UHGV virus genome: UHGV-1689382
Source of the DNA: a virus
DNA: 10,734 bases
Direction: 5' to 3' (one strand)
Shown piece by piece: positions 8,500 to 10,734 of the stretch (positions are counted from its first letter, which is position 1; every line of letters begins with the position of its first letter). The translations under genes and the position numbers were made by a program. A model generated the notes under the pieces. That model ran no database searches, was not told the DNA's origin, and worked only from the letters and a program-made list of their open reading frames with translations.

Positions 8500-8858
8500 A
8501 CGAATATCAGTTTGTGCTTCCATACCCGCCGTCGGTGAACACCTACTGGCGAAGACGGGGAAGCCAATACTACATCAGCGATAAAGGCCAGAAATACCGA
8601 AAAGACGTTCAGCAAATCATCCGCCAACTCAAGTTAGACATTTTCACCAAATCACGACTCCGCATCAAAGTCATCGCAGACGTTCCGGACTCCCGCCGTC
8701 GCGACCTCGACAACATCCTGAAAGGTTTACTCGACTCCCTTATCCACGCCGGATTTGCGGAAGACGACGAGCAATTCGATGACATTCGCGTAATTCGTGG
8801 CGTGAAAGTACCAGGCGGAAGGCTTGGAATAAAAATCACCGAACTGGAGAACGTATGA
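8496..8858 (+). CDS. rusA: Holliday junction resolvase RusA
   Basis: 120 aa with the same length and motif order as E. coli RusA: LPYPPSVNTYW near the N-terminus, DVPDSRRRDLDN catalytic acidic block, and C-terminal GGRLGIKITE. Start overlaps the ybcO-like stop (ATGA). Confidence 0.9.
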   Translation: MNEYQFVLPYPPSVNTYWRRRGSQYYISDKGQKYRKDVQQIIRQLKLDIFTKSRLRIKVIADVPDSRRRDLDNILKGLLDSLIHAGFAEDDEQFDDIRVIRGVKVPGGRLGIKITELENV

Positions 8859-9043
8859 ACGCCACAATTCAAACGATACCAGAGCTTCTTATCCAGACAC
8901 GAGGCAATAAGACCGAAGTGGCGAGGATGCTTTCCTGCGCAAGAGGAACAGTGCTCAAGTACAACCGAGACAGCAAAGGCGAGCGTCACGTAATAGTTAA
9001 CGGCGTCCTGATGGTCAAACAGGGCAAGAGGGGAAGACGATGA
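8855..9043 (+). CDS. ninH: NinH-like small DNA-binding protein (62 aa)
   Basis: TIPELLIQTRGNKTEVARMLSCARGTVLKY...VIVNGVLMV parallels lambda NinH (TIPDMLVEAYGNQTEVARRLKCSRGTVRKY...AIVNDVLMV) from memory. Overlaps the rusA stop and the Q start. Confidence 0.7.
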   Translation: MNATIQTIPELLIQTRGNKTEVARMLSCARGTVLKYNRDSKGERHVIVNGVLMVKQGKRGRR

Positions 9044-9528
9044 GCATAAGAGAAATAAACCTCACCAAAGAACAGCACGATTGGCTGAATGGCTGGCTTG
9101 AACTGTGGGGCGCATGGGTTTATTCAGGTCGTCTGGAAAAGCGCATGAGCAGCGTAATAGCGAAGTTCATGGAGAGCGTAGAGCCGGGAAGAGTTATGAC
9201 AAGGCCAATGTGTAATGATGATGATGGAATGTTGATTTCTCAGATCGTCGATTCCGTCATGTGCATTGACAAGAAAGCCTTTGGCATCCTCCTCAGCTAC
9301 TACGCTCATGGATCTTCCAAGCATGCCATTGCATCTTACTATCATCGTGTCGCAAGACCTCGCAAGATGTTATGCCGGGGCGGCGGGCGTATTCAAAAAC
9401 CATCGCTCGCAACCTGTCGCCGGGAAGTTGACGAAATCCTCAATGCTTCGTTGTTTATGATTTACCCAGTTCTGGATAGTGCGTTTAAAAACCGGAAACG
9501 TGTAGAGAAAATTAAACATGTAGCATAG
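9040..9528 (+). CDS. Q: Late-gene antitermination protein Q (phage 82 / QuuD-like family)
   Basis: 162 aa; HDWLNGWLELWGAWVYSGRLEKRMSSVIAKFMESVEPGRVMTRPMCNDDDGML matches the Q82-type antiterminator family from memory. Last gene before a promoter-like element and the lysis cassette. Confidence 0.85.
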   Translation: MSIREINLTKEQHDWLNGWLELWGAWVYSGRLEKRMSSVIAKFMESVEPGRVMTRPMCNDDDGMLISQIVDSVMCIDKKAFGILLSYYAHGSSKHAIASYYHRVARPRKMLCRGGGRIQKPSLATCRREVDEILNASLFMIYPVLDSAFKNRKRVEKIKHVA

Positions 9529-9534
9529 AACGTG

Positions 9535-9565
9535 TTGACATCATTGAGCAAATGAGCAACACTAT
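9535..9565 (+). promoter_or_regulatory. Putative late promoter PR' (-35 TTGACA)
   Basis: Consensus -35 TTGACA at 9535..9540, 7 nt after the Q stop. Candidate -10 elements 17-19 bp downstream (AACACT / CACTAT) are weak, so the exact -10 and start site are uncertain. Confidence 0.45.
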
Positions 9566-9618
9566 TCGCATAAGCTGCCGTTAGTGACTCTTAAGTTGCG
9601 ACGGTGGCTTTTTTGTTT

Positions 9619-9687
9619 GCACAACAGGTAAGAGCATTCTCCCTTATGGGGCTTGGCTTAAATGCACCGAGTGCTCTTATCGTTGTG
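9619..9687 (+). repeat. Hairpin-forming repeat unit 1 (long imperfect inverted repeat)
   Basis: Left arm CACAACAGGTAAGAGCA (9620..9636) pairs with right arm TGCTCTTATCGTTGTG (9672..9687), about 16 bp with one bulged A and one G-T pair, around a 35-nt loop. The 16-mer GCACAACAGGTAAGAG (9619..9634) recurs exactly at 10035..10050. Confidence 0.5.
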
Positions 9688-9888
9688 GCAGCACAACGAT
9701 AGTTTTCGTCAGAGTTGGCGACTTTGCGGGTTTTTAGAAGCTGACCACAAAGATAAATGCAAACGATGATTTGATGTTGATGGCGGCCTAAGAAACCAAA
9801 ATCACGGGGTCTTCCGACTCCCCGCTACCAAATTCGGCGCACTGGCCCGGTGTGATTAATAATGGGCACCCATTCAAATGTACCCTCG

Positions 9889-9914
9889 GCAGGTTCGATT
9901 CCTGACTAGACCCA
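9889..9914 (+). other. tRNA-like remnant (T-arm GGTTCGATTCC with no matching acceptor stem)
   Basis: Canonical T-loop TTCGATT (9894..9900) flanked by a 4-bp stem CAGG/CCTG, with CCA at 9912..9914 in one register. No complementary 5' acceptor strand was found within about 90 nt upstream. Confidence 0.25.
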
Positions 9915-10034
9915 GATGGCGACGGGGAGGGTCCAATTGAGTGGGTAACAACGGGCATGTCGCCTTAGTAAATCCCTCAAGGGTGCGACGCATAGACCGG
10001 TACTAGCGTCGCCGTTAGCTCCACGAAACGGAGC

Positions 10035-10121
10035 GCACAACAGGTAAGAGTATTTGTAGAGTTCGACTCTCTACCGTGGGATTTTTTCCGCGATGCGAGC
10101 CATAAATGCTCTTTCCGTTGT
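10035..10121 (+). repeat. Hairpin-forming repeat unit 2 (second copy of the 16-mer plus matching right arm)
   Basis: Left arm CACAACAGGTAAGAGTA (10036..10052) pairs with TGCTCTTTCCGTTGTG (10106..10121). The loop contains a T-arm-like hairpin GTAGAG-TTCGACT-CTCTAC (10056..10074) followed by a T6 run (10082..10087). Confidence 0.5.
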
Positions 10122-10451
10122 GCTGAATTAAGCGAATGCCGGAAGCAGAACCGGATCACCAAATGCGTACAGGCGTCATCGCCGCCCAGCAACAGCACAA
10201 CCCAAACTGAGCCGTAGCCACTGGCTATCCTGGATTCATCAGTGATAGTTATGCTGCGGCCTTCTACACATGACCTTCGTGAAAGCGGGTGGCATGAGGT
10301 TGCGCTAACAACCTCCTGCCGTTTTGCCCGTGCATATCGGTCACGAACAAATCTGATTACTAAACACAGTAGCCTGGATTTGTTCTATCAGTAATCGACC
10401 TTATTCCTAATTAAATAGAGCAAATCCCCTTATTGGGGGTAAGACATTAAG

Positions 10452-10734
10452 ATGCCAGAAAAACATGACCTGTTAGCCGCCATTTTCGCGGCAAAGGAAC
10501 AAGGCATCGGGGCAATCCTTGCGTTTGCAATGGCGTACCTTCGCGGCAGATATAATGGCGGTGCGTTTACAAAAACAGTAATCGACGCAACGATGTGCGC
10601 CATTATCGCCTGGTTCATTCGTGACCTTCTCGACTTCGCCGGACTAAGTAGCAATCTCGCTTATATAACGAGCGTGTTCATCGGCTACATCGGTACTGAC
10701 TCGATTGGTTCGCTTATCAAACGCTTCGCTGCTA
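10452..10734 (+). CDS. S: Holin S (lambda type), 3'-truncated by the window edge
   Basis: Hand translation [94 protein letters not shown] corresponds to lambda S105 from its Met3 start. Upstream GGGGG SD and sdi-like structure. The frame runs off the window, so it is absent from the ORF track. Confidence 0.9.

Follow-up and report, generated by a model that had tools for sequence, protein, structure and literature searches.

A lambda-family S holin gene with ATT at the position of the antiholin start codon, a probable S105-only allele, downstream of a tmRNA-like element in the Q-S leader

The closest described system to the locus reported here is the S gene of phage lambda, in which Met1 is the start of the S107 antiholin and Met3 the start of the S105 holin. 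S107 differs from S105 by an extra Met1-Lys2, and the added positive charges hold TMD1 outside the membrane, which turns the longer protein into an inhibitor; the usual holin:antiholin ratio is ~2:1 and a phage with S105 only lyses '5 to 10 min earlier' (PMC6116005; PMC7276437). In the laboratory S105 allele, Met1 is replaced by Leu (M1L) through an ATG to TTG or CTG change, and the TTG version is described as making S105 only (PMC3166277). With M1L the lysis time was shortened from 48.8 to 43.8 min (PMC7276437) and from 65.1 to 54.3 min (PMC3166277). What the lambda antiholin does biologically is still called unclear (PMC7276437). A start codon can also be a non-canonical one: AUU is the one such codon for which use in E. 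coli genes (infC, pcnB) has been confirmed, and it initiates at ~1-2% of the AUG level (range 0.02-3%), with Met still inserted, these values being dependent on context and on IF3 and obtained with E. coli reporters in contexts other than that of the S mRNA (bioRxiv 10.1101/063800).

The DNA studied here is a stretch of 10,734 nt of the virus genome UHGV-1689382, called the window below. It covers the early-right and late-control parts of a temperate lambdoid phage genome, and the source phage is an HK446/HK97/P22-like lambdoid mosaic from a human-gut metagenome. The window contains genes for a cI-like repressor, cro, cII, O, a DnaB-type P, nin genes, Ant, YbcO, RusA, NinH, Q and S. All its ORFs are full-length, and the lengths of cI, O, P, the nin genes and Q equal those found in intact relatives, so that nothing points to decay of the prophage. 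The closest E. coli prophage has a Q protein of 207 aa, longer than the one in the window (9040-9528, 162 aa), and a truncated Q in a defective prophage was considered; this idea was ruled out, the gene coding for an intact Q of a different family (PF06530) that has an equal length in several relatives. Between ninB and ninX, on the plus strand, lies an ORF of 200 aa (6206-6808) of the HNH/NUMOD4 endonuclease type, a homing-endonuclease type insertion missing from most of the relatives listed.

Three gut-metagenome contigs from ENA assemblies, ~100% identical to the window, were reached through the predicted 105-aa S product and the Q protein in a protein/contig index. These are L127 (ERZ1314726 NODE_4776, 3,421 nt, k-mer coverage 1.6, 100% identical to window 7491-10734), L140 (ERZ28623357 QINJ12-1_SAMN00792032 scaffold_1378, 11.9 kb, with gaps amounting to 225 N) and L142 (ERZ27293723 k109_1184, 2,156 nt); they may be re-assemblies of one sample. 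For the 6206-6808 ORF, the NUMOD4 and HNH_3 Pfam matches are those of its identical counterpart in L140. The mosaic boundary at the ninF/ant junction (position 7491) is where two assemblies of this phage are interrupted: L127 begins exactly at this position, and L140 diverges at it, with a different sequence and then N. L140 has a further N gap over window 1593-1660. The continuity of the window across 7491 may depend on the choice made by the assembler.

The 5' region of S was read directly in the window. Positions 10435-10457 are GGGGG TAAGAC ATT AAG ATG CCA, the G-run occupying 10435-10439, and all the features of this region lie on the plus strand. An upstream stem-loop of the sdi type (10424-10440, AUCCCC / UUAUU / GGGGGU) is identical in sequence to that of lambda, and was predicted in the minimum-energy and centroid folds of the window, mEp213 and lambda RNAs; the G-run in it forms a Shine-Dalgarno-like element for the first start. 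In lambda, according to work of Blasi and colleagues in 1989, this hairpin reportedly partitions initiation between the two starts. An in-frame TAA (10440-10442) closes the S frame two codons before the Met1 position. At that position, where lambda has the S107 antiholin start, the window has ATT (10446-10448) through a G to T change at 10448, with the GGGGG at a normal 6-nt spacing upstream. The AAG that follows (10449-10451) is the Lys2 codon of the dual-start motif and would be translated only with initiation at ATT, and the next codon is the ATG of Met3 (10452-10454), the S105 start and the sole canonical start of the gene. A second stem-loop (10476-10492, GCCGC / CAUUUUC / GCGGC), covering codons 11-16, corresponds to the second translational-control hairpin of lambda and was predicted in the window, mEp213 and lambda RNAs. 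Its stem is unchanged, and a C to T change at 10485 (CTC to TTC), located in the loop, replaces Leu14 by Phe (L14F, S107 numbering) in TMD1.

The coding sequence of the S105 form begins at 10452 and is cut by the end of the window at 10734, after codon 94 of 105. These 94 codons translate as lambda S105 except for L14F. Contig L127 completes the gene, with 105 aa from Met3 and a stop, and its product matches PF05106 (Phage_holin_3_1); the homology to lambda S extends over the whole protein, as expected of a lambda-family class I holin, and homologous copies are named 'phage holin, lambda family' by PGAP. The gene is located downstream of Q and of the late promoter PR', and L127 shows an overlapping endolysin gene next to it, the positional homologue of R.

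The sequence-only reading of this DNA had held that the window reads ATT-AAG-ATG before CCAGAA, which the direct read of 10446-10454 bears out, and had given ATG-AAG-ATG for lambda. The alignment agreed with this, ATG being found at the ATT position in lambda J02459 (S CDS from 45186), mEp213 and HK446. That only the S105-type ATG is a canonical start was correct as well: between the TAA and Met3 the in-frame codons are GAC, ATT and AAG only. Because of this in-frame TAA two codons upstream, no other start can yield an S107 bearing Lys2. The window has both hairpins that flank the starts of dual-start holin genes (lambda S, P22 13, phage 21 S) and set their initiation ratio, sdi upstream and the second one ~10 codons in, and it lacks their pair of in-frame canonical starts around a basic-residue codon (Met1-Lys2-Met3), with no ATG, GTG or TTG after the in-frame TAA and before Met3. 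What it has is the arrangement of an S105-only allele, with no efficient start at codon 1 and with Met3 and the coding sequence intact. An effect of ATT on RNA structure was also considered and rejected, since only a marginal 4-bp helix (CAUG/CAUG) is gone from the minimum-energy fold and the centroid fold is the same.

The comparison with lambda can be extended to the whole end of the window. Over 10300-10734 the identity to lambda J02459, mEp213 and HK446 is at least 99%. Lambda S has the same sdi hairpin, Lys2 codon, Met3 start and downstream hairpin, with the 5' region and CDS ~99% identical in nucleotides, and the same place downstream of Q/PR' and upstream of R; it differs by its first start, ATG instead of ATT, and by Leu instead of Phe at residue 14. 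The nearest allele, that of mEp213, differs at two of 435 bases, 10448 (G to T) and 10485 (C to T). The second of these was examined as a possible second private mutation, which would have hinted at error or decay, and this was rejected. L14F with an intact Met1 was found in a 107-aa protein (P0002, MKMPEK..IFAAKE..) on at least 38 contigs with several DNA backgrounds, and in all ten loci read that carry this protein the T at 10485 is accompanied by G at 10448; L14F segregates as a natural allele. The change at 10448, where the 14 comparison loci all have G, is the only private change in the S region.

We then considered how frequent the ATT allele is. The comparison of this codon across S alleles, which had been proposed as a check, gave ATG at Met1 in every one of the 123 copies counted, of which IMG/VR supplied 120 and phage records 3. 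A 57-mer with ATT had no exact match in 887 complete E. coli genomes that have the region, nor in 80 phage records. The identity bands of 57- and 70-mers cannot separate one mismatch from two, and they were replaced by codon-specific 34-mers. The ATT 34-mer, which seeds on the ATT allele only, gave no match in 5,426 complete E. coli genomes, where the GTG version, taken as positive control, found one E. coli genome and an ACG 34-mer of the same design found none in the complete E. coli genomes. Neither the ATT 57-mer nor the ATT 34-mer has a copy in these 5,426 genomes or in 50,697 phage records. An exact ATT 30-mer likewise gave no match in IMG/VR, GTDB species genomes and JGI metagenomes, zeros that say nothing on the reality of the allele because it turned up in ENA assemblies. 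ATT is present in the three ENA contigs L127, L140 and L142, and in identical contigs the gene callers place the S start at Met3. The exact 105-aa product is recorded on one contig among ~15 billion proteins. The closest relatives with an identical Q (L138, L139, which is E. coli CP019029, and L141) are 96.7% identical to the window over 7352-10734 and have ATG.

Other natural alleles without Met1 exist in E. coli prophages, and were found among S genes with the wild-type Leu14. Five of the ten such loci called from Met3 have a codon 1 other than ATG, namely ACG in three, AAG in one and GTG in one, and two more copies, one GTG and one AAG, come from IMG/VR. The ACG loci are L143, L145 and L148, the AAG loci L146 and L126, and the GTG loci L147, L125 and E. 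coli NZ_CP066844. Four of the other five Met3-called loci have small changes in the TAAGAC spacer; the spacer variants seen among loci L143-L152, L125 and L126 are a one-base deletion (GGGGGAAGAC), TAAGGC and TAGGAC. The ACG, AAG and GTG alleles lie in the same gene with the same flanks as in the window, and callers start them at Met3. They differ in what they leave at codon 1: GTG keeps a weaker canonical start, ACG and AAG give no start, whereas the ATT of the window is a near-cognate codon. L14F was found on none of the ACG, AAG and GTG alleles seen here. S alleles whose first start is predicted to be lost or weakened thus form a rare but recurrent polymorphism, and ATT joins the set formed by ACG, AAG and GTG.

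We consider it probable that the window carries a natural S105-only holin allele, equivalent to the laboratory S105 (M1L). In both, the S107 AUG is gone and S105 is untouched. They differ in that the laboratory allele is engineered, has TTG or CTG and lacks L14F, while the window allele is natural, with ATT and L14F. We infer the consequences for translation and lysis timing in this phage as follows. A single G to T change would have turned the first S start from ATG into ATT. The output of holin should be normal, the Met3 start, the CDS, both hairpins and the downstream endolysin gene being intact. Synthesis of S107 (fMet-Lys-Met-Pro...) would drop to the level of a near-cognate AUU, ~1-2% of AUG or less; it should lie at or below this level because the same ribosome-binding region offers a true AUG 6 nt further downstream. 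The product started at AUU would be ordinary S107, since the initiator tRNA inserts fMet, and the start-codon change would alter the sequence of neither protein. The predicted effect is a pure change of ratio, from a holin:antiholin value of ~2:1 to 100:1 or more, S107 being down ~50-fold or more. The claim that the antiholin would be lost or reduced to weak initiation at ATT thus finds support in the sequence and in the published AUU rates. By analogy with M1L (5-11 min), one would expect lysis several minutes earlier, with a smaller burst and with the antiholin buffer gone. The net lysis timing is not predictable from the loss of Met1 alone, because L14F lies in TMD1, where substitutions shift timing; L14C, for instance, shifts lysis by ~+8 or -2 min depending on the background (PMC3166277).

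This reading supposes that the T at 10448 is real. An error of sequencing or assembly, such as a G to T change by oxidative damage in a low-coverage metagenome, with a true ATG codon, seems unlikely to us, even if several facts point in its direction. The allele is seen in metagenome assemblies only and is absent from the isolate and phage collections searched, its protein product is as rare as stated above, and two of the three contigs have the low k-mer coverage (L127) or the N gaps (L140) already given. Against an error, three differently named assemblies (a SPAdes-style NODE, a MEGAHIT-style k109 and the QINJ12 scaffold) and the window all have T, they show no difference elsewhere in the region, and the 10.7 kb show no further private change that would damage a gene. 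MEGAHIT by default drops k-mers seen once, which also counts against an error. A real T could in turn be a neutral or mildly deleterious change in a prophage under no selection for lysis timing, an early decay devoid of biological meaning. In favour of this, the change is one private SNP, which no collection shows to be spreading, and Met1-loss alleles generally were seen mainly in chromosomal prophages; against this stand the ORFs of the 10.7-kb window, all full-length when compared with intact phages, and the intact S and start of R in L127, and we hold such a decay to be very improbable. It concerns selection only and is compatible with the mechanistic prediction made above.

The ATT might also be a functional weak start kept by selection, which would give a meaningful amount of antiholin depending on IF3 or growth state and would perhaps re-tune the lysis clock together with L14F. 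AUU serves as a confirmed start in infC and pcnB, where it lies at normal spacing after a Shine-Dalgarno-like G-run, as it does in the window with the G-rich element 6 nt before ATT. The natural GTG allele shows that a weaker dual start can be kept, and substitutions at residue 14 alter lysis time. However, AUU is the only start of infC, and the basis of IF3 autoregulation, whereas the window S has a strong AUG 6 nt downstream to compete with a codon that works at 0.02-3% of AUG. The ACG and AAG variants are non-starts, so that simple loss is tolerated; L14F is widespread with a normal ATG, so that the two changes are not generally linked; and the ATT allele is extremely rare. A functional weak start of this kind appears very improbable to us, and we give very little credence to the more specific idea that ATT was selected as a very weak start sensitive to IF3 or growth state, giving antiholin only when start-codon discrimination is relaxed, or as a compensation for L14F. 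If either were true, the locus would be a natural case of lysis timing evolving through start-codon strength. The AUU of the window is known from its sequence context, and its use as a start is a possibility. A natural S105-only allele is the reading that we retain.

The leader between Q and S was also analysed; its length is 917 nt in the window and 677 nt in lambda. Downstream of a PR'-like promoter it contains a terminator-like hairpin (9573-9617), and beyond this hairpin a highly structured segment of ~500 nt (MFE z = -4.3). Within it we found an unannotated element on the plus strand (~9619-10125), with a conserved core at ~9698-9868, which in its predicted features resembles the mRNA-like domain of tmRNA. 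The core holds AUAAAU-GCA AAC GAU GAU UUG AUG UUG AUG GCG GCC UAA, that is, the peptide ANDDLMLMAA and a stop, vs ANDENYALAA for the E. coli tmRNA tag, and the tag frame is preceded by a resume-like context with UA at -5/-4. In 130 of 130 copies the frame is 10 codons long without exception and follows the pattern AN[DE][DEN]xxL[AMI][AV]A, and its variation consists of synonymous changes of Leu and Ala codons and of a stop that is TAA, TAG or TGA. The first ~52 nt are colinearly antisense to nt 54-108 of E. coli tmRNA, a stretch with the 3' half of PK1, the resume site and tag codons 1-6. Pairing with tmRNA is predicted to have an energy of -51.6 kcal/mol (z = -5.3), a value reached by none of 500 shuffles. 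Two hairpins of the element show compensatory changes.

A 24-nt pattern of the core matches at least 120 IMG/VR contigs, and among 5,426 complete E. coli genomes 137 contain the core, which is unannotated in them. It occurs also in unrelated siphophages (Skatevirus, Klebsiella MK54), with its own TTGACA-N17-TAGATT promoter and adjoining tRNA genes, and these copies have the same predicted pairing with tmRNA. A tRNA-like domain was found neither by ARAGORN on the 130 copies nor by Rfam in E-value mode, and the window gave no tRNA or Rfam match at gathering thresholds. Mycobacteriophages and Bacillus phage G are the only phages listed with a tmRNA in a 2014 census, and in the searchable literature we found no mention of the tag peptides of the element. 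The phage RNA may pair with the host tmRNA and block or redirect it, as an anti-tmRNA, or it may be an RNA that supplies an alternative tag.

A long hairpin occurs once on each side of the core (9619-9690 and 10035-10125); the two copies begin with GCACAACAGGTAAGAG(C/T)ATT and close with ..CTCTT(A/T)(T/C)CGTTGTG; their 20-nt direct repeats are 416 nt apart. Klebsiella phage MK54 and the Skatevirus phage each have just one copy, which is placed downstream of the core and differs in its apical part. This flanking hairpin could be a site of processing or recombination. Two tRNA-like fragments were also seen, one at 9888-9914 (GGCAGGTTCGATTCCTGACTAGACCCA), with a T-arm and an acceptor-like 3' end, and one at 10056-10090 (GTAGAGTTCGACTCTCTAC, followed by a T-run). 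Neither was called a tRNA by ARAGORN, and both are missing from the siphophage copies of the element. They may be tRNA remnants, because related lambdoid prophages hold tRNA-Asn and tRNA-Thr genes in this same slot.

Taken alone, the ATT allele repeats what the laboratory S105 mutant already teaches, and the tmRNA-like RNA of the leader is potentially of more consequence. Met1 is ATG in ~99.9% of the copies examined, and the dual start is strongly, not absolutely, conserved. Since the codon is ATG in essentially all other copies, purifying selection acts on it and its loss should matter. The rare ATT, ACG, AAG and GTG alleles are ready material for testing the fitness role of the antiholin outside the laboratory.
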